From assembly GCF_000146505.1 (NCBI RefSeq), contig NC_017448.1, positions 1,170,001 through 1,202,000 on the forward strand: a stretch of DNA of 32,000 bases, in the 5' to 3' direction. The first letter of the stretch is position 1. The number at the start of each line of letters is the position of its first letter. The position numbers were made by a program, and so were the translations under genes. Below, piece by piece: positions 8,053 to 30,441 of this stretch. The notes beneath the pieces were generated by a model. That model was given only the letters and a program-made list of their open reading frames with translations, had not been told where the DNA came from and did no database searches. This stretch comes from Fibrobacter succinogenes subsp. succinogenes S85 (GTDB lineage: Bacteria > Fibrobacterota > Fibrobacteria > Fibrobacterales > Fibrobacteraceae).

Positions 8053-9471
8053 CTAAGCAGCTTTTACCGGATTCAAGAAGAGATATTCTACCGTCTCAGT
8101 CTTGATTTTTATGCCTTTTTCGTGAGCGTAGAGATAAAGCAGTGCTGTACCGACACCAGCAGCGCCATCGTAAAGCCCCGTGTAGGTTTCTACGAAACCC
8201 GGCAATTTGCGAGTCCAAGCCGCAAACCAGCGACGTCCCTTGTCATCGTTCCAAGAATCACCTAGAAGCTTGTCTGCAGTGAGCTTCGCCTGTTCGATGT
8301 AGGATTCATCATTCAGTACTTCTGCCGTCTTCACGAAATGAGCGAGAACGCCAGGGGCTCCGCAGCAAAGGCAATAACTATTCCAATAACCCGGAGTATG
8401 CTTGAGTGGAGCGCCGGTCTTGAGGATACCCTTAGTGAGCAAGTCCACCCATTCCAAGTTTTCTTTGTTCTGAGTCACATCGAAAAGTTTGCGGAACAAA
8501 AGTGTTGTACCTACGGGACCATGGCAAGTCGAAAGGTAATAGAAGTCATGGAAACGCCCCTTTTCCGGATTGTAGAGATACGGAATCAAAGCACCATTTT
8601 CATCGCCCTCAACGATTGCCGAAAGGAACTTGACAACTTCATTCGCCTTGTCGAGATAAGCTTTTTCCTTAGTTTCTTCGTACAAGAGAACATTCAAGAA
8701 AGCGGATCCAGCAGCACCATGGCTAAAGTTAGGGAACACAGATTCCTTGGATTTCCAGCCAACAAGCGTCAAGTCCACGTTCTTGTAGTAAATGCCGCCT
8801 TCCTTGGCATGGACAATTCTCGTGTCTGTAAAAGCGACAACTTTTTTGGCCGCTTCTAGATACTTCTTGTCTTTAGTCTTGCGATAGACGTAAAGGAAGA
8901 AAAACGCGTAAGATCCATCGGCCATCAAGTCGGCTTCGGAGCTCCAGTGGAGCGTGTTACCGTCATCAACGCCTGCAGCGATGGAATCGTCAGCCGTGCG
9001 GATCAGGAATTCGCGGTAACGCGGATCGCCCGTATGTTCGTAAAGCTGTTCCACGAAAATTGCCTGCCCCGCCGGTGACGCATAGACACTCGTTCCCCAG
9101 CCCTTGACCGGCCAGACACCGCCGTCGTTTCCGTTCAACACATTATCAAAGAACTGTTTGCCTTCGTACGTGTTGAGGATGTATTCTGCTGCATCCTTTG
9201 CCTCTTGCAAATACGCTTCGTCCTGAGTGACATCGTAAAGTTGCAAGAAGAATTGGCCAATGCCAGCCGAGCCGGCATAAAGGCCCTTAGGCGTAATCAT
9301 CAGGTCGCCCTTGTACTCATTTCCCGGTTCCGGGCTTGCTTTCCAGTACTTGCCATGCGGCGTGACGACCTCATTTGTCTTGAGATACTTGACAATCTGC
9401 AAAACCGCTTCGAGATAATTTCCATTTTTGGAGGCGCTAAAATCTAGATTTTGAACAAAGTTTAATTTCAT
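8053..9471 (-). CDS. LanC-like (lanthionine synthetase C family) alpha/alpha-toroid protein
   Basis: 472-aa ORF with six spaced G-rich helix-start repeats: GLYAGSAGIG, YASPAGQA, SHGAAGSA, TCHGPVGT, LCCGAPGV and LYDGAAGVG. Each is followed ~20 aa later by D/E..YL..A. Cys and His candidates for a Zn site are present (TCHG, CCG, SHG). Its ATG overlaps the stop of the upstream gene (TAATG). Confidence 0.65.
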   Translation of the reverse strand: MKLNFVQNLDFSASKNGNYLEAVLQIVKYLKTNEVVTPHGKYWKASPEPGNEYKGDLMITPKGLYAGSAGIGQFFLQLYDVTQDEAYLQEAKDAAEYILNTYEGKQFFDNVLNGNDGGVWPVKGWGTSVYASPAGQAIFVEQLYEHTGDPRYREFLIRTADDSIAAGVDDGNTLHWSSEADLMADGSYAFFFLYVYRKTKDKKYLEAAKKVVAFTDTRIVHAKEGGIYYKNVDLTLVGWKSKESVFPNFSHGAAGSAFLNVLLYEETKEKAYLDKANEVVKFLSAIVEGDENGALIPYLYNPEKGRFHDFYYLSTCHGPVGTTLLFRKLFDVTQNKENLEWVDLLTKGILKTGAPLKHTPGYWNSYCLCCGAPGVLAHFVKTAEVLNDESYIEQAKLTADKLLGDSWNDDKGRRWFAAWTRKLPGFVETYTGLYDGAAGVGTALLYLYAHEKGIKIKTETVEYLFLNPVKAA

Positions 9472-10484
9472 TACACAGCCTCACTTTTTTTCTTTCTCTT
9501 GTACAAATCCGTGGAGAGATACTTGTAACCGTTATCGGCGTAAATCACCACAATGTTCTTGCCAGCCGCTTCGGGGCGTTTTGCAATCTGGATTGCTGCC
9601 GTAAGAGCTGCAGCCGCCGAAGTTCCAAGGAAGAGACCATCAGTCTTTGCGGTTTCCTGAGCGGTCTCGTAAGCTTCTTCGGCCTTGATGTCAATGATTT
9701 CATCAAATTCAAAACCGTTATTGCGGTTATCCTTGATAATCGTCGGCACCAAAGATTCATCAACACGGCCAAGCGGGAGCGTACCATCGACAATGTGTCC
9801 CGTAAAATCAGGATTGTCCGGTCGAGAAGTCGGAGCGGCCTGCACGCCAATGATTTTCACGTTTGGATTCTTTTCGCGGAGGTAGCGACCCGTACCTACG
9901 ATAGTACCCGCAGTACCGCCCATAGCAACAAAGTAATCCACATGGCCATCCGTATCGTTCCAAATTTCAGGACCTGTTGTCTGGTAATGATATTCCTGGT
10001 TGGCGTTGTTCAGAGTCTGGCCCGTGTAATACTGGCCCTTTTCCTTGGCGAGGCGTTCCATACCCGCAATCAGATCGTCGAGCACAAGGCCCTTCTTTTC
10101 AAAGTCGGCCACTTCCTTAATGTCATAGAAAGATTGCAAATCGAGACCGTAGCCTTCAAAAATCTGGACGCGTTCAATCGTCGTACCGGGTTCAAGATAA
10201 GGGACATATTCGTAACCAAGAGCGTGACCAATACCCGCAAGCGCAATACCTGTATTTCCACTCGTCACGTCAATCAACGTATCACCTTTTTTGATAGCGC
10301 CCTTCTTTTCGCCATCACGGATAAGGGCTAGAGCAAGGCGGTCTTTCACAGAGCCAGTCGGATTCAAGAATTCGAGTTTACCGATAATGTGCGCTTTGAG
10401 GCCGTACTTAGATTCGTAATTAGTCAGTTCAACAAGGGGAGTGTTACCAACGAGTTCAGCAATAGACTTATGAATTTTAGACAT
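9471..10484 (-). CDS. PLP-dependent cysteine synthase-family (fold type II, CysK/CBS-like) enzyme
   Basis: 337-aa ORF with NPTGSVKDR (PLP lysine), TSGNTG and GGTAGT loops. It is longer than typical CysK, carries inserts, and ends in a basic tail KRKKKSEAV. Confidence 0.8.
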   Translation of the reverse strand: MSKIHKSIAELVGNTPLVELTNYESKYGLKAHIIGKLEFLNPTGSVKDRLALALIRDGEKKGAIKKGDTLIDVTSGNTGIALAGIGHALGYEYVPYLEPGTTIERVQIFEGYGLDLQSFYDIKEVADFEKKGLVLDDLIAGMERLAKEKGQYYTGQTLNNANQEYHYQTTGPEIWNDTDGHVDYFVAMGGTAGTIVGTGRYLREKNPNVKIIGVQAAPTSRPDNPDFTGHIVDGTLPLGRVDESLVPTIIKDNRNNGFEFDEIIDIKAEEAYETAQETAKTDGLFLGTSAAAALTAAIQIAKRPEAAGKNIVVIYADNGYKYLSTDLYKRKKKSEAV

Positions 10485-10538: not shown

Positions 10539-11333
10539 TTATTCAGCATCACCGTAAATATTGACCTTGTTGTCTTCCTTGGTGGCGGTATAACCAGCAT
10601 CTACAGGGAGCTTGATGCCTGTAATTGCAGAAGCCTGATCGCTCGTGAGGAAAAATACCGCATTTGCAATTTCTTCAGGTTCAATCCAACGGTTTAAAAT
10701 GCTACGGTCTTCAGCGGCCTTACGGAGTTTCGGATCCGAATAGTCATGTTTGATAGCCATCTCGGTCTTGGTAAAGCCCGGAGCTACAGAGTTCACACGA
10801 ATGCCATAGCGCCCTAGATGGAAAGCCGCTGCACGTGTAAGCCCATCGACCGCGGTCTTCGAAATGCCATAAGCAAACGGAGTCCATTCTGCAAAGGAGG
10901 CGACAAAAGAAGAAACGTTCACAATAGCTCCCTTGATGCCCTTTTCAATAAAGACACGACCTACATGCTGAATCAAATAGAGACTACCCCAAAGGTTCAC
11001 ATTTTCGGCCTGTTTGATTTCTTCCGGGTCAAAGCTAAGCACGTTTTTGCGATGGCCAACAATGCCTGCGTCATTGAACAAGGCATCAATGCGTCCGTAC
11101 TTCTTAACGATTTGAGCAACGACTTCTTGACCTTGTTTGTAATTAGCAACATCCAGCTCGTAAGCGGTCACATCGGCACCTTGAGCGGTGAGCTTCGCCA
11201 CTTCGCCATCGAGCTGTTCTTTTTTGATATCCGTTGCGGCAACAGCCCAACCTTCCTTGACATACTTCTTGACAGCGGCAAGGCCAATTCCCTGTGCGGC
11301 ACCTGTAATAACGATAACTTTCTTTTCACTCAT
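10539..11333 (-). CDS. Short-chain dehydrogenase/reductase (SDR)
   Basis: 264-aa ORF with the TGAAQGIG cofactor motif, NDAG, and a catalytic YGISK (YxxxK). AAGGAA lies upstream of the ATG. Confidence 0.85.
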   Translation of the reverse strand: MSEKKVIVITGAAQGIGLAAVKKYVKEGWAVAATDIKKEQLDGEVAKLTAQGADVTAYELDVANYKQGQEVVAQIVKKYGRIDALFNDAGIVGHRKNVLSFDPEEIKQAENVNLWGSLYLIQHVGRVFIEKGIKGAIVNVSSFVASFAEWTPFAYGISKTAVDGLTRAAAFHLGRYGIRVNSVAPGFTKTEMAIKHDYSDPKLRKAAEDRSILNRWIEPEEIANAVFFLTSDQASAITGIKLPVDAGYTATKEDNKVNIYGDAE

Positions 11334-11371
11334 TCTGAAATTCCTTTTTTGGTTTTTGCGGATACACCGGT

Positions 11372-11393
11372 AAAAGCGGTTTCATTCGAAACC
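11372..11393 (-). terminator. Weak hairpin plus U-tract inside the operon leader (attenuator candidate)
   Basis: The minus strand reads GGTTTC-GAAT-GAAACC followed by GCTTTTA, ~40 nt upstream of the SDR ATG. Confidence 0.2.
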
Positions 11394-11477
11394 TTGACAC
11401 ATGTTATCCTGATTTGTTGTGATTCCTTTGACTTCTTTTCTATAACCGTTGAAGCCCAAAGGATAATTGGCTTCTGG

Positions 11478-11525
11478 TTAGTTTATTTTCAGAATGCCTT
11501 CCGGCATTCGACAGTCGCTACACAT
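11478..11525 (-). CDS. 15-codon Cys-rich mini-ORF in the operon leader (leader peptide or precursor candidate)
   Basis: The minus strand reads AAGGAG-CATAT-ATG TGT AGC GAC TGT CGA ATG CCG GAA GGC ATT CTG AAA ATA AAC TAA, encoding MCSDCRMPEGILKIN. The ORF contains the perfect hairpin GAATGCC-GGAA-GGCATTC (11492-11509). Confidence 0.3.
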   Translation of the reverse strand: MCSDCRMPEGILKIN

Positions 11526-11594
11526 ATATGCTCCTTCGAAAGCCAAGGTGAAGTGAAAGACCTTTTCAATTCCCTATCGTTCTTGTATGTTATA

Positions 11595-11623
11595 AAATTA
11601 GAATATACCTTCTGCAATGTCAA
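11595..11623 (-). promoter_or_regulatory. Candidate promoter of the SDR/CysK-like/LanC-like operon
   Basis: On the minus strand, TTGACA (11623-11618), a 17-nt spacer, then TAATTT (11600-11595). This implies a ~255-nt 5' leader. Confidence 0.4.
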
Positions 11624-11804
11624 GGCATAGAGATATACTATTTTATCATGGGTAGCTATAAGATATAACTATAACAATAAATACCAGATTATTGAAGGGA
11701 ACGCGCGCACAAATGCTATCCTAGACTATGATATTTATTACACATTCCGTCAAAACACCTTTAAAATCTGTTCTTGAAAGGTGTAATTAATTAAATTTCC
11801 ATCG

Positions 11805-14418: not shown

Positions 14419-16095
14419 TTATTTGATAACTAGGCCCTTTTTCCCAGAGACGAACGGGTCTTCGCCCGTCGAACAGAAATTCGTTTTTTCGGAGTACTTG
14501 CCAAGCCCTCTTATATTAATTCGGCTCTTAGCATTCGCTTCACCTTGGACTGCAAAGAGAATCGATGTCATAAATGTCGTACTGACTTCACTAAACACCG
14601 TCATAAAATTATCCCAATCGGCACATACCGTCTTTAGCTTAATGGACTTGGGCAATGTCATCTTAGGCATTCTAGAAAGATTTCCAAATCCACCTTCTTG
14701 AGTATAAGCCAAAACAACTTCCAAGTCAGAGTCCGAAGCATACGTTACGCACAAGCCTCCCCAACTTGAGATATTAGCCTTAGCAGCCGGTAAATCACCA
14801 TCAAGCGGATCAACAACACCAGCGACATGGAAACCTATACCCAAATAACCTTCTTTTGCAAATTGCAATTCACCACAAGCGCCCATACAGTAATCATAAA
14901 TTTCATCGCCCGTCGGATATTCAATCCCAAGCGGTTGCGGTAATTTTACAGAACCAACACCGGACATATCGTCGCCAAAGCTGAACCAATATCCTGAAGT
15001 TTCGGATCCGTTGTCTAGCCCGGTCTCAACATGATAATCATTATTATTGACAGCCTTCGGACCATACCACATTTCGCTAACGGACTCAGGCGAGACACAA
15101 TCGTGAGAAGGAGTAAAAGACGAACTGCTCCCGTTCACGCCAGAGCTGCTTGAGCTACGCAATATAATCGTTCCGACCTCAGCTCCTCCATTGAATTTAG
15201 AAACAACCTCCGCGAAACCGTCTACTTCGCACGCTCCCATCGCATCAAATTTACCGATTGCAGCGATATTGAAATGTCCTTTCGTTTCCTCGGAACTTTT
15301 CATTACGACTCTAATGGAATGGGCATGCTTAGCCGCCTCAGCAGCCGTCGATGTTGCTTTTGCTGTTGCACCGACAAATTCACTCCAAGGAACGCACTTT
15401 TCAACAAATTCAAGAGATTTGTCCAGTTTGACTTCATAGAAAGTAACTGAATCTGCGCCAAGCCACAAGAACATATCCCTGTCGGCAGCATACGTCACAC
15501 AAACACCGCCCCAGTCACTGATATCGCCATACCGCTGGATATGTTTCGTATAATATTCTTCAGGATTTTCAACCCCGGCGACATTAAATCCGACACCCGC
15601 AAAAGCTTCATTTAAGATGCCTTTTTGCAAGACAATCGCTCCACTATATCCCCCATAATATTCAAGCAAGTTTTCCATGCATTCATACTCAGGAGTTTCA
15701 AACGCGCAGACATCGGGAAAAACAACACTTGACGTTCCGCCATCAGGATCATCGCCAAAATTATACCAAAGTCCGGCATAATTATCAAGATCCTCATTAA
15801 CAAAACCCGTATTCACGTATGTCTTTTTATCAAAGCCCCGCCACAAGCAGGCAGCTGTATTCTTCGGTGTTTTGGCACTACTTGAGGAATTTACAATCAC
15901 GCTACTTGATGACTCGCCCCCAACGACGCTCGATGACATTCCAACACCATCACTGCTACCAGGAACGGTTTCAACAGATGAACTGCTATTGCCGTAAGCC
16001 GGGACATCAAAACTACCCGACGGGTTATCGTCAGAGCAAGCAACAAAGCCAAACAGCAAGGCACTCGCCGCAATATCTAAAATTCTCCTAAACAC
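14419..16095 (-). CDS. Two-module Cys-containing lipoprotein, lineage-specific paralog 3 of 3
   Basis: 558-aa ORF with a GTG start 6 nt after AAGGAG. The signal peptide and lipobox read MFRRIL...FVACSDDNPS and are followed by a Ser-rich linker. Two ~190-aa modules carry WGG(V/L)CVTY, AG(V/I)GF, KC/VCxxW and FNI/INIxG.GK motifs. Confidence 0.8.
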   Translation of the reverse strand: MFRRILDIAASALLFGFVACSDDNPSGSFDVPAYGNSSSSVETVPGSSDGVGMSSSVVGGESSSSVIVNSSSSAKTPKNTAACLWRGFDKKTYVNTGFVNEDLDNYAGLWYNFGDDPDGGTSSVVFPDVCAFETPEYECMENLLEYYGGYSGAIVLQKGILNEAFAGVGFNVAGVENPEEYYTKHIQRYGDISDWGGVCVTYAADRDMFLWLGADSVTFYEVKLDKSLEFVEKCVPWSEFVGATAKATSTAAEAAKHAHSIRVVMKSSEETKGHFNIAAIGKFDAMGACEVDGFAEVVSKFNGGAEVGTIILRSSSSSGVNGSSSSFTPSHDCVSPESVSEMWYGPKAVNNNDYHVETGLDNGSETSGYWFSFGDDMSGVGSVKLPQPLGIEYPTGDEIYDYCMGACGELQFAKEGYLGIGFHVAGVVDPLDGDLPAAKANISSWGGLCVTYASDSDLEVVLAYTQEGGFGNLSRMPKMTLPKSIKLKTVCADWDNFMTVFSEVSTTFMTSILFAVQGEANAKSRINIRGLGKYSEKTNFCSTGEDPFVSGKKGLVIK

Positions 16096-16126
16096 AACGC
16101 ACTCCTTTATTACTTAATTATAAATT

Positions 16127-17662
16127 CTATTTTTCAAAAAAGGCTGGTGTTTCAAAAGAGCACGCGCCATTAACGGAATATTTCCCTATACCCGCCAAAT
16201 TAAATCTACATTGTTCATGATCCTCAGTACCCTTTATAGCAAACTGGATAGCACCAACAGCTCGCCCCATATCAGGGTCATTTGGCGCAATTTCATTCCA
16301 AGTAAAGCACTTTTCGACAAGCCCACTGGACTTTGGCAAAGCGACCTTAGGAGAGTTCTCGTAAGGAACATCTTTTACAACAAAGTTCAAGTAAGCATCC
16401 TTTTCGGAATAGTAAGTGACGCAAACACCGCCCCAGTCTTGAATATCTTCGAAAACGTAATCGCCATCATTAAAGCCCGCAATATTAAACGAGACCCCGC
16501 CAACAGCGTATTCAGCCCCTTCCAGAGTAAAATCCATCGTCCCACAAAAACCGAGACAATCCTCAATAAGGCCACCATACACTTCATATCCAAACTCCCC
16601 TGACAGCTCCACCGGGAATTCAATATGAGCATAAGCGTCACCAGGAGACGCCTCAAAATGTTCCAACCAGCCCGCGTACCTGTCACGGTCATTATAGCCT
16701 GTTTTCACATGGGTTCCGTCAACCCCTTTCCACAGACAAGTCAAGGAATCATCATCAGGAAAATTTACATTGACCCCATCATTAGGAAATTCCCAATCAA
16801 ACGAAAATTCGTCCGGTTTATAAGTACTGATTCCCCTAATATTGAAAGTTTTCTTATCGTCATCACCTTGGCTTTTAACCTCAAACATGATAGACAGGAT
16901 TTCCTTTGCGGCCTCTTCTCCCGTATAAACCTGGCGATTGATTGAATATTCGGAATATTTCCATTTAGTTATATCAAAACGGCTCCATTCTGCACATACA
17001 GTTTTAGGCTCGTCAATCCAATACAAATTACGAAGTGTGGGTTCAGAACCACCATGCGTCGTTCTTTCTAGAAAGCCCTCAGGATATGCCATGAACGGCC
17101 ATATTTCACTATTGGAATCAATTCCATCAACATTAACTTTCAAATGGACATACATCCAATAATCAGATTCATACGTGATACAGATACCACCCCAAGACGA
17201 AACATCCGCCGTAGCGCCGTCCCTGGCTAGTTGGATTTCAAAACCAGCCCAAGGTCTATACACTGAAGTATCGGGTTCAAGCGATCCGCATAAGCCATCA
17301 CAATGTTTAAAAACAGAGGCCAAAGGAGTCGATGATTTTTCGAGTTCGACAGGGAAAACAATCTTCGATTTACCCTGTTGACCAAACAAGGTATCGCCAA
17401 AGGTTCGCCAAAAGCCCGTGCTATCGTCACCCGTTTTGACCTTGTAATCTACGGCAGGGTCCCACAAGTTATAGCGGCGAGCCTTTACCGCACCACTCGA
17501 AGAAGACTCGACTACGACACCGTCACTCGAAAGAGCATCTACAGACGAGCTACTCCCTTCTGCGATAGGCTCAGCAATCGGAATCGAAGGATTGTCATCG
17601 GAACAGGCGACAATTCCAAGTAAAAAGGCTGAAATCGCGCCCCCAAGGATTCTCCTAAACAT
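16127..17662 (-). CDS. Two-module Cys-containing lipoprotein, lineage-specific paralog 2 of 3
   Basis: 511-aa ORF with an ATG 6 nt after AAGGAG. The signal peptide and lipobox read MFRRIL...IVACSDDNPS. Its modules contain SSWGGICITY / QDWGGVCVTY, HCDGLCG / DCLGFCG, and FNIRGISTY / FNLAGIGKY. Confidence 0.8.
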   Translation of the reverse strand: MFRRILGGAISAFLLGIVACSDDNPSIPIAEPIAEGSSSSVDALSSDGVVVESSSSGAVKARRYNLWDPAVDYKVKTGDDSTGFWRTFGDTLFGQQGKSKIVFPVELEKSSTPLASVFKHCDGLCGSLEPDTSVYRPWAGFEIQLARDGATADVSSWGGICITYESDYWMYVHLKVNVDGIDSNSEIWPFMAYPEGFLERTTHGGSEPTLRNLYWIDEPKTVCAEWSRFDITKWKYSEYSINRQVYTGEEAAKEILSIMFEVKSQGDDDKKTFNIRGISTYKPDEFSFDWEFPNDGVNVNFPDDDSLTCLWKGVDGTHVKTGYNDRDRYAGWLEHFEASPGDAYAHIEFPVELSGEFGYEVYGGLIEDCLGFCGTMDFTLEGAEYAVGGVSFNIAGFNDGDYVFEDIQDWGGVCVTYYSEKDAYLNFVVKDVPYENSPKVALPKSSGLVEKCFTWNEIAPNDPDMGRAVGAIQFAIKGTEDHEQCRFNLAGIGKYSVNGACSFETPAFFEK

Positions 17663-17737
17663 ACAACACTCCTTTCTTTTATCTATAAATTGTAATATAT
17701 ATTATTTCTTTTACTTAGTTACCAGTTATGAATACAA

Positions 17738-17761
17738 AGCCCGCCGCTAACGCGACGGGTT
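17738..17761 (-). terminator. Hairpin downstream of lipoprotein paralog 1
   Basis: The minus strand reads CCCGTCGC-GTTA-GCGGCGGG followed by CTTTG. The plus-strand version is followed by TTTTCTT. Confidence 0.45.
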
Positions 17762-17808
17762 TTCTTACATCAATTCTTTTTATTTAGAAGCTTCGCTCCC
17801 AATATATT

Positions 17809-19149
17809 TTATTCATTTACAGGGAACAAGGTAACCTTAGACACATCTATTTTGCAAGTTCCTGTGGGTGAATATTTTCCGACAGCGATGACGCTCAACC
17901 CTGCAGTCGTATCCACGAGACTTCTCAATTCAAATTCAATAAGGCTCGCATTTTTTGCCACTTCCTGAGCAGACATTTCTTCCCAAGTCAAGCATTTTTC
18001 AATAGGCGATGTCGACATCGGCAAGGTAGCGCTAGCTTCATGAGCGGAGTCAGCCACAAGCACAAGACGCGCATCCATCTCCGACATGTAAGTTACGCAG
18101 AGACCGCCCCAGGCGCTAACATCTCTAGGCTTGGGGTAGAAATCTTCGCTTTCTTCATCATAGCCAATAATCTGGAGACCGATGCCTGCAAAGGCTTCTT
18201 CATTATTGTTCTTTTGCAGGTTTACAGTCGCAGAAAGGCCTCCCTTCGACTTCACGACATCGGCTACCCAGACGGAAACACTCATGTACTTTGACGGCAA
18301 TACATCCCATTCAAGCGACGATAAGCCACCTTCTTCCTGGTCGTTAAATTCATACCAGGATCCGCCTTCCAGGCCGTCATAGCCCGTAATCAAAGAATCT
18401 CCATCATCCTTCGGTGCTGCATTCCAGAGGCAGGAATCCTGTTCCAAAGAATCAATCTTGACAATACCGTGCTTATAGGAGCTAACGCCTTTAATGTTGA
18501 AGAATCCCGATTCCTTCGACTTGCCCATGAACTTGAATATCAGCGAAGTCACCTTTTTAGCCACTTCAGCACTGGAACCATTCTGGAATTCAGCCCATTT
18601 CGCACAACGTGCTGCGACAGAACCCTTTGTCGTCTTTTCAAAATTGACAGACGGCATGTCTTCCGCTGAAGCTTCTGCATCGCCATCCTTATAGCCAAGC
18701 AGGCCCTTCATCGAGAGTTCCGATTCATAGGAAACGCACAAGCCGTCCCATCCGGAAACATCTATAGCAGTATCCTTTTCGACAAGTGCAATACCCACGC
18801 CTGCGCTAACGTCAGAACCTTCTCCAAGTTCAACAGTTCCGCAAACACCGCCGCAATAGGAGACCACGGATTCCATGGCATCCGGCGAATCGTCTTCTTC
18901 CACGGACACAGGGAACGTAATTGAGGACCGTCCAAGAACAGGAGAGCTTTCAACGTACCAGTAACCGGTAACGCCGTCGCCCATATTGACACGAGCACTA
19001 CCGTTCGCGCCATTCCACAGGTCGTACTTGTACTGTGTGTTGTCGGCAACCGGGTTGCCTTCTTCCGTAATCCCGGCAGTTTCTTTGGAACATGCGACCA
19101 TGCCCAGCAAAAAAGCACAGGCAGAGATGTTAATTAGGTTCCTTAGCAT
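17809..19149 (-). CDS. Two-module Cys-containing lipoprotein, lineage-specific paralog 1 of 3
   Basis: 446-aa ORF with lipobox LGMVACS. Its modules contain SGWDGLCVSY / SAWGGLCVTY, YCGGVCG, RCAKWAEF / KCLTWEEM, and FNIKGVSSY / VIAVGKYS. Confidence 0.8.
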   Translation of the reverse strand: MLRNLINISACAFLLGMVACSKETAGITEEGNPVADNTQYKYDLWNGANGSARVNMGDGVTGYWYVESSPVLGRSSITFPVSVEEDDSPDAMESVVSYCGGVCGTVELGEGSDVSAGVGIALVEKDTAIDVSGWDGLCVSYESELSMKGLLGYKDGDAEASAEDMPSVNFEKTTKGSVAARCAKWAEFQNGSSAEVAKKVTSLIFKFMGKSKESGFFNIKGVSSYKHGIVKIDSLEQDSCLWNAAPKDDGDSLITGYDGLEGGSWYEFNDQEEGGLSSLEWDVLPSKYMSVSVWVADVVKSKGGLSATVNLQKNNNEEAFAGIGLQIIGYDEESEDFYPKPRDVSAWGGLCVTYMSEMDARLVLVADSAHEASATLPMSTSPIEKCLTWEEMSAQEVAKNASLIEFELRSLVDTTAGLSVIAVGKYSPTGTCKIDVSKVTLFPVNE

Positions 19150-19969
19150 CGCACTTGTCCTTTCCCCATGTCAGAGGGAACAGCTGTAAATTCAATCGGT
19201 AAACGCGGTCAGTACCGCGACTATTCAACGCAATCTGGGCAATCCTCTTTCTGCAGGTATCAAGCTCCTGCAAAATTTGTTCATAATCCTCATCGGAAAT
19301 GCCCATCGTAAGACCCGTAAAATTACGTTCCTCCGGATCAAAACGGTCAATCGCTTCCCCAGCGAAAACGGCCATTTTGCGGTGCATATAGCGAAGCGCC
19401 ATGGACACCACAGAAGACGAACCCTTCAAATGCTTGTCCGCCTGCTCGTAGGTATCGCCGTTTTTCTTTAAGAGCCCCACGCGTACCATGAAATCAAGCG
19501 AATCGCGGATTTCACCAGCAGAGACGCATTGACAGCAACGCCTGGCAATATCGCCCGGAGTCGCCTTCGGCATAATCGGCGCAAGCTCTCTCACCACCGG
19601 ATGCACCCAGGATTCAAAATACTTGAACGCATCGCCATCGACAAGTTTTACCTTGTTATTGGCAGCAAGCTCCATCATGGATTCAAAGGCTATTTTGCGT
19701 TCCTGGTCCGTCTTGGCATGGCAATAAGTCACCATGGTCTTGAAATATTCAAGTTCAAAACCAGCAAGGCTCATGGCCATTCCGACCTTTTCTGCCCCTT
19801 GAGGAGAAAGGCGGGTCTTACCCTCACACACCAACTTCAAATAAGTTGGAGACGTAAAGCCCGAGGCTTTCGCATATTCACGCCACGAAAACGACGAAAC
19901 TCGCTTACGTTCGTCGTAATAATCTTGCATATAAACGCGATAGTCCTGATATTCCGTCACCGACTTCAT
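19130..19969 (-). CDS. TIGR02147/DUF4423-family protein (putative HTH regulator)
   Basis: The N-terminus MKSVTEYQDYRVYMQDYYDERKRVSSFSWREYAKASGFTSPTYLKLVCEGKTRLS matches my memory of the family signature. The track ORF extends 13 codons further, to 20008. The 3' end overlaps the next gene's start by 20 nt. Confidence 0.7.
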   Translation of the reverse strand: MKSVTEYQDYRVYMQDYYDERKRVSSFSWREYAKASGFTSPTYLKLVCEGKTRLSPQGAEKVGMAMSLAGFELEYFKTMVTYCHAKTDQERKIAFESMMELAANNKVKLVDGDAFKYFESWVHPVVRELAPIMPKATPGDIARRCCQCVSAGEIRDSLDFMVRVGLLKKNGDTYEQADKHLKGSSSVVSMALRYMHRKMAVFAGEAIDRFDPEERNFTGLTMGISDEDYEQILQELDTCRKRIAQIALNSRGTDRVYRLNLQLFPLTWGKDKCDAKEPN

Positions 19970-20096
19970 CGCAATAAATATATATAATTTTGTATTAAAC
20001 GGCAACATTTCATGATACCGTTTACACGTTTTTAGCTTAAATTTGCAAGAATTGCCGAAATTTAATCAAAATCGGCATTTTCTATGATACAGGAAA

Positions 20097-30063: not shown

Positions 30064-30070
30064 TCGCCAC

Positions 30071-30436
30071 GAGTGGCGGATGGCCGCCGGCAGCGAGCAA
30101 TCAAAGCTGGAGGAAAGTCCGGGCACCGCAGGGCAAGATGCTGGATAACGTCCAGGCGCGGTAACGCGACAGAAAGTGCAGCAGAGAATAGACCGCCCGC
30201 AGCAATGCGGGTAAGGGTGAAACGGCGAGGTAAGAGCTCACCGCGCTCCTGGTGACAGGAGTGGCATGGTAAACCTCATCCGGTGCAAGACCAAGCAGGA
30301 TTCCGTTCGAAAGAACCTGGTGCGGCCCGTGCCAGCTGGATATCCGGGTAGGTCGCTTGAGGCGGTCGGTAACGATTCGTCCAGAGAGATGGTCATCGCT
30401 TCGCAAGAAGTACAGAACCCGGCTTATAACTACTCT
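30071..30436 (+). ncRNA. rnpB: RNase P RNA, bacterial type A
   Basis: The universal blocks are present: GGAGGAAAGTCCGGGC, AGGGTGAAACGGCGAGGTAAGAGCTCACC, GGTAAACCTCATCCGGTGCAAG, GGGTAGGTCGCTTGAGG and ACAGAACCCGGCTTA. P1 pairs GAGTGG (30071) with CTACTC (30430-30435). The ends are approximate, within about 5 nt. Confidence 0.92.
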
Positions 30437-30441
30437 ACTAT

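Follow-up and report, generated by a model that had tools for sequence, protein, structure and literature searches.

What is an open reading frame (ORF) of 15 codons, two of them Cys codons, doing in the leader of an operon for an SDR-family oxidoreductase, a CysK-like pyridoxal phosphate (PLP) enzyme and a LanC-like protein? The question arises from a 32,000-nt stretch of Fibrobacter succinogenes subsp. succinogenes S85 DNA (NC_017448.1, positions 1,170,001 to 1,202,000; the whole stretch is called the window here), where the leader and its mini-ORF lie on the minus strand in a 471-nt gap separating two divergent genes. The initial annotation offered two answers, a Cys-sensing attenuation leader peptide and a minimal Cys/Ser substrate for the LanC-like enzyme. 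With slightly better than even confidence, we favor a version of the first: the mini-ORF would be a translated leader peptide gene that couples the SDR/CysK-like/LanC-like operon to the speed at which Cys codons, and probably Met codons as well, are decoded. The attenuation-type reading is favored because the Shine-Dalgarno (SD) sequence and seven codons are invariant in four Fibrobacter clades and because Cys/Met leader ORFs followed by terminators precede the same cassette in two distant lineages. The comparative part of the proposal thus gained support, and its mechanism is incomplete.

Conservation of the mini-ORF and its distant counterparts

The SD sequence AAGGAG, its 5-nt spacing and the Cys-rich ORF encoding MCSDCRMPEGILKIN are all present on the minus strand as the initial annotation described them, and so are the TTGACA-17-TAATTT promoter candidate and the leader of about 255 nt that it implies (Table 1). 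The peptide begins Met-Cys-Ser-Asp-Cys. The SD had been called as good as those of bona fide genes, and its strength and spacing do match those of the real genes in the window, which typically have AAAGGA(G) 5–9 nt before the start codon. The Cys/Met enrichment of the mini-ORF is modest, with two Cys in 15 codons and three Cys/Met within codons 2–7. Dinucleotide shuffling of the intergenic region yielded an SD-preceded short ORF with at least three Cys/Met codons per six-codon window in 5 of 2000 shuffles, and one with at least two Cys codons in 19 of 2000.

A genome scan with the LanC-like protein identified 11 Fibrobacter-type loci (77–86% protein identity), and exact-protein look-ups added more; related loci are designated by L numbers. 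The leader alignment contains eight leaders from four clades, which represent only four distinct haplotype groups. The mini-ORF, its Cys codons and its SD are kept in all four of these diverged clades. The SD and the 22-nt start of the ORF, ATGTGTAGYGACTGTCGAATGC, which encodes MCSDCRM, are invariant in the eight leaders apart from one synonymous change (AGC/AGT). The spacer between SD and ATG (5–6 nt) varies among clades and the spacers and flanks have otherwise diverged; conservation sets in sharply at the ATG itself and extends over 22 nt. Sequence and length differ in the 3′ half of the ORF, with the frame kept: the peptide is MCSDCRMPEGILKIN in the window clade and its five near-identical metagenome copies, MCSDCRMPLWQNRCILKTK in L034, MCSDCRMPKGMQKNR in L003/5/6 and MCSDCRMQASIQN in L004/7/8. 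The L034 version carries a 12-nt (four-codon) in-frame insertion in the loop of a hairpin described below. The L003/5/6 and L034 loci have no SDR gene and the same leader stands directly 5′ of the CysK-like gene, which shows that the leader travels with the CysK-like/LanC-like pair. A metagenome scan for a degenerate SD followed by MC[ST]DCRM returned the five near-identical copies of the window leader plus four chance matches and no new diversity. These sequence comparisons indicate that the mini-ORF is not a product of chance.

The region 5′ of the leader is conserved more widely than the mini-ORF. Nine promoter regions align without gaps over an inverted repeat (TATAG-N8-CTATA), a AAATAGTATA box and then TTGnnn-N16/17-TAnnTT. 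The register of this last element is kept in all Fibrobacter-type loci, and the whole architecture extends to L009, L021/22 and L036, which have no mini-ORF and whose leaders have only a 3′ module, such as GTTTTACCGGTG, in common with the window. The inverted repeat and the box stand at a fixed distance 5′ of the promoter in the window, L021 (260–269 and 2881–2890), L003, L004, L008, L009, L034 and L036. The box is unique in the window (0.02 chance matches expected), occurs once per cassette promoter, and also precedes an operon of Cys_Met_Meta_PP and aminotransferase genes in L021. The promoter candidate is missing from the output of a generic sigma-70 scan, as TAATTT agrees with TATAAT at only 3 of 6 positions. 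The conserved architecture supports a transcription start 5′ of the mini-ORF. It is also likely, judging from the same alignments, that the palindrome and the AAATAGTATA box form a transcription factor site, a second layer of control common to the cassette and the Cys/Met PLP-enzyme operon. A LysR-type gene is found near the cassette in L034. Several contigs with a Fibrobacter-type locus and promoter sit in metagenome-assembled genomes (MAGs) labeled Alistipes onderdonkii, Oscillospiraceae, Sodaliphilus and Eubacteriales (L004, L007, L009 and L010), labels that are likely due to binning contamination.

The SDR/CysK-like/LanC-like triad also occurs with LanC-like proteins 60–68% identical to that of the window in Granulicoccus phenolivorans (L023), in an Actinomycetaceae MAG (L026/27; 68%) and in L024/25 (60%). 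This level of identity between Fibrobacter and Actinobacteria suggests that the cassette as a whole moved horizontally between phyla. In the L026 leader, GGAAAGGAG is followed after 7 nt by an ATG that opens an ORF encoding MTNRIPTNGEAMCMCCQAGGLYPLMSSCRRSL, with an AMCMCC run. A terminator of 10 pairs (7 of them G-C) plus TTTTGTATTT follows the ORF, 38 nt 5′ of the SDR start. The L024 leader has an SD and MTVCIERTDSMMMCRM... / MTVCIERTDSMMMCRMTGNPRTCSMARFFGMRYRPE, with an MMMCRM run, followed by a terminator with one bulge, CCGGGUGCUU-AUCAG-AAGCCCCGG-UUUUUU. Both ORFs reach five Cys/Met codons per six-codon window, a density found in 0 of 2000 shuffles for each. Across both strands of the 344 kb of fetched DNA, the criterion picked out only about seven further ORFs, scattered chance matches that lie inside genes wherever gene calls exist. 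Neither leader ORF is homologous to the Fibrobacter mini-ORF; they have only Cys/Met in common with it. More distant pairs of LanC-like and PALP genes (38–44% identity) have no small ORF. L035, a locus with a TTGACA-17-TATAAT promoter, has a small ORF of a different kind, MKPNMKPNNRRRLSNEQ (1625–1680), that overlaps the SDR start; it is based on a tandem ATGAAACCAAAT repeat and has no Cys codons.

Constraint folding of the L024 leader pairs CCCCGGA, inside the ORF, with the 5′ arm of the terminator. This predicted antiterminator survives a ribosome stop at codons 11–14 and is lost once the ribosome passes about codon 16. As modeled, the L024 fold behaves as a classical attenuator would, with the operon switched on by starvation. 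The convergence of three unrelated Cys/Met leader ORFs on one three-gene cassette in three distant lineages is a functional clue: it suggests that the role of the cassette is in sulfur amino acid supply, not in lantibiotic synthesis. The sulfur context of the window fits, with its CysK-like enzyme and a promoter architecture common to the Cys_Met_Meta_PP operon.

Leader RNA and the proposed sensor

Three short elements can form alternative helices around the start of the mini-ORF. Element A overlaps the SD, element B (UCGAAUGCC) covers codons 5–8 and element C covers codons 10–12. Folding predicts A:B pairing in the window and in L003, L005, L034 and L004, with 85% of cells paired compared to 13–35% in slid controls. 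The B:C pairing is the 7-bp hairpin GAATGCC-GGAA-GGCATTC noted in the initial annotation, which does lie inside the ORF. Its folding energy is −11.3 kcal/mol (z = −4.2 compared to shuffles), its arms persist in every clade around a changing loop, and 88% of cells are paired compared to 15–40% in slid controls. Conservation is what backs A:B and B:C as putative alternatives. A further hairpin, 5′ of element A, belongs to the minimum free energy (MFE) fold of the window and is absent from the folded leaders of the L004 clade.

A ribosome-mediated sensor could operate on these elements as follows. The promoter-like site would place the mini-ORF within the transcript, and the speed of decoding at its Cys codons would reflect the supply of charged tRNA-Cys. 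Element B would pair either with A, at or just 5′ of the SD, or with C. Whether a ribosome pauses at Cys2 or Cys5 or runs to the stop codon would decide which segments stay free, and the resulting choice of helices may alter how the stretch of roughly 145 nt from the ORF to the first enzyme gene folds. The readout in the two distant analogues would be the intrinsic terminator. The best candidate readout in the window is a predicted duplex between CAUUCUGAAA, at the 3′ arm of C, and its complement UUUCAGAAUG at the SDR start. The MFE fold contains this duplex; a complement of at least 10 nt appeared in 30 of 5000 shuffles, and its energy of −12.4 kcal/mol was reached by 0 of 1000. Our guess is that the operon turns on under Cys/Met limitation, because, in the L024 model, a ribosome stop at the MMMC run is required for the antiterminator to persist. 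We infer the translation of the mini-ORF, stalling at its Cys codons, the identity of the output structure and the direction of control.

Several results weigh against this scheme. A covariation test across the clades found no compensatory change in either the A:B or the B:C helix. In L003 the pairing between the ORF and the SDR start is marginal, in L034 and L004 it is no better than expected by chance, and the modeled accessibility of the SDR or downstream start shifts modestly with ribosome position in the window and inconsistently among clades. Occlusion of the SDR start was rejected as a conserved mechanism on these two grounds and is kept as a window-specific candidate. The weak hairpin nearest the SDR gene does not satisfy terminator-like criteria, is not listed by the terminator scan and forms in every ribosome state under constraint folding. 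A trp-style antiterminator, in which CAUUC-U-GAAA would bind the 5′ arm of this hairpin, was rejected because the hairpin persists in all of these states. In L026, no antiterminator is predicted and the terminator is formed in all modeled states. The two Cys codons are not adjacent and make a weaker signal than classical runs of regulatory codons. The invariance of Ser3, Asp4, Arg6 and Met7 exceeds what a pure codon sensor needs, and such a sensor does not explain the frozen synonymous sites in several codons. The overlap of the A:B and B:C pairings may account for the invariant heptapeptide and frozen sites, or the peptide itself may matter. Finally, the mini-ORF is missing from L009, L021/22 and L036, which have the promoter and part of the 3′ leader, and the cassette occurs without any such ORF in at least five lineages (these three plus L023 and L035).

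The remaining structures proposed as switches in the initial annotation, the GAAGCC/GGCTTC and TTATCC/GGATAA pairings and the weak hairpin with its U-tract, are present in the leader. They gained no support as functional switches: no helix covaries, and the hairpin does not qualify as a terminator. Each clade has a UCCUU/CCUCC element 10–60 nt past the ORF stop with an internal AAGGA-like partner, which in the window is CAAAGGAAU (11430–11422). Of these putative anti-SD/decoy-SD duplexes, only that of the L004 clade stands out, on energies computed without a shuffle control. A UCGAA(U/G)G-type motif occurs four times on the minus strand of the leader, at the SD (11531–11540), in codons 5–8 (11503–11511), in the loop of the weak hairpin (11383–11391) and at the SDR start (11331–11340), where the copy reads CAGAAUG. 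Several sites could thus compete for the single CAUUC segment.

Table 1. Positions in the window of the leader elements, the operon genes and the divergent neighbor.
Feature	Position	Strand	Details
NlpC/P60 gene	11805–12629	+	Divergent neighbor of the operon
Operator-like inverted repeat	11655–11674	−	TTATAG-N8-CTATAGC; upstream of promoter; gap-free register in 9 promoter regions
AAATAGTATA box	11634–11643	−	About 10 nt 5′ of the −35 element
Promoter candidate	11595–11623	−	TTGACA 11623–11618, TAATTT 11600–11595; spacing 17
5′ leader hairpin	11544–11576	−	UAGGGAAUUGAAAAGGUCUUUCACUUCACCUUG; MFE fold; predicted also in L003, L005 and L034
Element A	11533–11544	−	GGCUUUCGAAGG; overlaps SD; complementary to element B
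Shine-Dalgarno sequence	11531–11536	−	AAGGAG; 5 nt 5′ of mini-ORF ATG; invariant in 8/8 aligned leaders
Mini-ORF	11478–11525	−	MCSDCRMPEGILKIN; 15 codons plus stop (TAA 11480–11478); Cys codons 2 and 5
Hairpin inside ORF	11492–11509	−	Element B (GAAUGCC), GGAA loop, element C (GGCAUUC)
CAUUCUGAAA	11487–11496	−	3′ arm of C plus following bases; perfect complement of SDR start UUUCAGAAUG (11340–11331)
Hairpin GAAGCC/GGCUUC	11451–11474	−	GAAGCC 11474–11469, GGCTTC 11456–11451; loop with anti-SD-like, pyrimidine-rich UUAUCCUUUG (11466–11457)
TTATCC/GGATAA pairing	11466–11461 with 11409–11404	−	
Weak hairpin	11370–11393	−	GGUUUC-GAAU-GAAACC then GCUUUUAC (GCTTTTAC in DNA reading); 6 pairs, only 4 U
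SDR translation initiation region	11331–11347	−	AAAGGAAUUUCAGAAUG; partner of 11496–11487
SDR-family oxidoreductase	10539–11333	−	264 amino acids; first gene of operon; Pfam adh_short_C2, E = 1.2e-62
CysK/CysM-like PLP enzyme	9471–10484	−	337 amino acids; Pfam PALP, E = 4.9e-59
Stand-alone LanC-like protein	8053–9471	−	472 amino acids; Pfam LANC_like, E = 5.4e-28

Alternative explanations and known systems

The rival that survives best, itself unlikely in our estimate, is an RNA-only switch in which the conserved 22 nt and the A, B and C helices bind a ligand, a protein or a small RNA and the ORF is incidental or a helper. The synonymous sites frozen in TGT, GAC, TGT and CGA suggest a constraint at the nucleotide level, element B is able to pair with both A and C in all clades, and the hairpin arms are kept though the residues they encode differ (GIL, GMQ, SIQ and CIL). 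Against this stand the missing covariation in both helices and the Rfam searches, which gave no match for the leader at the gathering threshold or at E values up to 10, and no relevant match for the 11 related loci at gathering and permissive thresholds. An RNA-only switch also leaves unexplained the well-spaced, invariant, strong SD, the way conservation begins abruptly at the ATG, and the frame kept through the L034 insertion. Moreover, the distant analogues have runs of Cys/Met codons in common and no RNA sequence.

Less likely again is that MCSDCRM is itself the active part. Short leader peptides are able to arrest ribosomes, and the mini-ORF product could act in the ribosome tunnel as a nascent-chain sensor of a sulfur metabolite, in the manner of TnaC and the Erm leaders. 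It could instead be a CxxC micropeptide that binds metal, acts in trans, or is used or modified by the CysK-like/LanC-like pair. All seven N-terminal residues are invariant, not Cys alone, position 8 is Pro in three of the four clades and CSDC fits the CxxC pattern. At the nucleotide level, the same invariance can be accounted for by A:B and B:C pairing; the peptide is missing in sister lineages that have the same operon, and the L024 and L026 analogues have no common motif beyond Cys/Met. The mini-ORF resembles TnaC, ErmCL/ErmDL and the Cat/Cml leaders in being a very short leader ORF with conserved amino acids and an overlapping hairpin, but its peptide lacks a known arrest motif. If the peptide reading were true, MCSDCRM and the Cys/Met ORFs of two other phyla would mark the cassette as an undescribed, horizontally mobile sulfur amino acid pathway with peptide-based control.

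The second proposal of the initial annotation, a minimal ribosomal precursor, is distinctly improbable. On this reading the LanC-like enzyme, possibly helped by the PLP enzyme and the SDR, would convert the Cys/Ser peptide to a thioether product, with the hairpin and U-tract playing the part of the leaky terminator found 3′ of lanA genes. As in lanA systems, a small Cys/Ser ORF stands directly 5′ of a LanC-family gene and a hairpin separates the two. Cys and Ser/Thr are likewise found in the L024 and L026 ORFs, which have terminators behind them, and the LanC-like protein retains candidate zinc-ligand Cys residues. Pfam searches of the window and the gene tables of related loci revealed no LanB, LanM, LanKC or LanL dehydratase, protease or exporter, and no LanT gene lies nearby. 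The peptides, of 13–19 amino acids, are unlike known precursors in having no leader region and no leader/core organization, and in having their conserved part at the extreme N terminus. A variable C-terminal half and cross-phylum peptides without a shared motif are a poor fit to enzymes that are 60–68% identical. The peptide is not kept across homologous cassettes, which are complete without such an ORF in the five or more lineages given above, and the more distant LanC-PALP pairs also do without one. Unlike LanC in lanA systems, the LanC-like protein has a CysK-like PLP enzyme as its constant partner. These data disfavor the substrate proposal. The last alternative, a chance ORF without a function of its own in a conserved promoter-proximal leader, is highly improbable: the ORF is very short and known from four haplotype groups only, but shuffles rarely reproduce it, its SD, ATG and frame are kept while the flanks diverge, and two other lineages have independent Cys/Met ORFs 5′ of the same cassette.

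The closest known relatives of the ribosome-mediated sensor proposed here come from Actinobacteria. Leader ORFs with runs of Cys codons had been predicted 5′ of cys operons in Actinobacteria (Seliverstov et al. 2005, PMC1262725), and in Mycobacterium smegmatis ribosome stalling on polycysteine short ORFs (the Cys ribulon) alters a duplex that sequesters the ribosome-binding site (Canestrari et al., bioRxiv 10.1101/834739). The Fibrobacter leader resembles these attenuators in that a cysteine-related enzyme operon opens with a short ORF containing Cys codons as its first cistron, there is no strong terminator, and the proposed readout is a duplex with the downstream ribosome-binding region that depends on ribosome position. 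It differs in that the ORFs are SD-led instead of leaderless, the two Cys codons are split as CxxC with no run, the whole heptapeptide is invariant, and the host phylum is Fibrobacterota with an uncharacterized SDR/CysK-like/LanC-like cassette under control. The distant analogues differ from the mycobacterial attenuators by mixing Met and Cys codons and using intrinsic terminators. The trpL, hisL, pheL, thrL and ilvL attenuators likewise have a leader ORF with codons for the sensed amino acid and alternative helices that start inside the ORF, and the L024 and L026 analogues share with them a terminator directly 5′ of the first structural gene. Unlike these classical systems, the window has no convincing terminator/antiterminator pair, the ORF stop lies about 145 nt from the gene, and the Rfam leader models give no match.

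Cys-keyed leader peptide control has so far been documented in Actinobacteria only, and the literature searched contained no report of it for Fibrobacterota. What is most likely new here, judged from the comparisons above, would be an SD-led Cys-codon leader sensor with two split Cys codons in the Fibrobacterota, tied to an uncharacterized cross-phylum cassette. With about 290 nt and 15 codons, the leader is a compact system in which to test the minimum number of regulatory codons for a ribosome-based sensor, and the mini-gene is a test of how coding and RNA structure constraints coexist.

Cassette enzymes and their surroundings

The assignment of the three operon genes rests on the Pfam matches in Table 1. 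The PLP enzyme scores below every NCBIfam cutoff, including that of cysKM (264 bits, cutoff 344 bits), and the solved structures closest to it are cysteine synthases. The LanC-like protein scores 98 bits against Pfam LANC_like (cutoff 23.2 bits). Among homologues of 25–86% identity, its residues C316, C369 and C370 are invariant and H317 is nearly so. The C316-H317 motif is kept, and the second motif is C369-C370 compared to Cys-His in LANCL2. The invariant Cys-Cys pair at 369–370 together with C316 suggests an all-Cys metal site. The LanC-like protein is accompanied by a CysK-like gene even at 38–44% identity and in reversed gene order (L029 and L032).

Related loci place the cassette next to Cys_Met_Meta_PP and aminotransferase genes (L021) and next to an ABC transporter with an NMT1-type binding protein (L021/L036). 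In L021 (6435–8629) and L022 (4218–6412), a second SDR and a second LanC-like paralogue lie directly 3′ of the first triad, and this second pair adjoins the NMT1-type transporter. L030 (297–5407) has a 68%-identical LanC-like gene without a PLP partner, which adjoins a PFL-like glycyl-radical enzyme, its radical-SAM activase and an unannotated protein of 372 amino acids. A tblastn search of plasmids for more cassette contexts returned only homologues of 28–30% identity, none with a PLP partner. Elsewhere in the window, three large consecutive ORFs (558, 511 and 446 amino acids) without a Pfam match occupy 14419–19149 on the minus strand and are followed by a DUF4423 protein at 19130–20008. A full-length bacterial class A RNase P RNA (271 bits) is encoded on the plus strand at 30070–30440.

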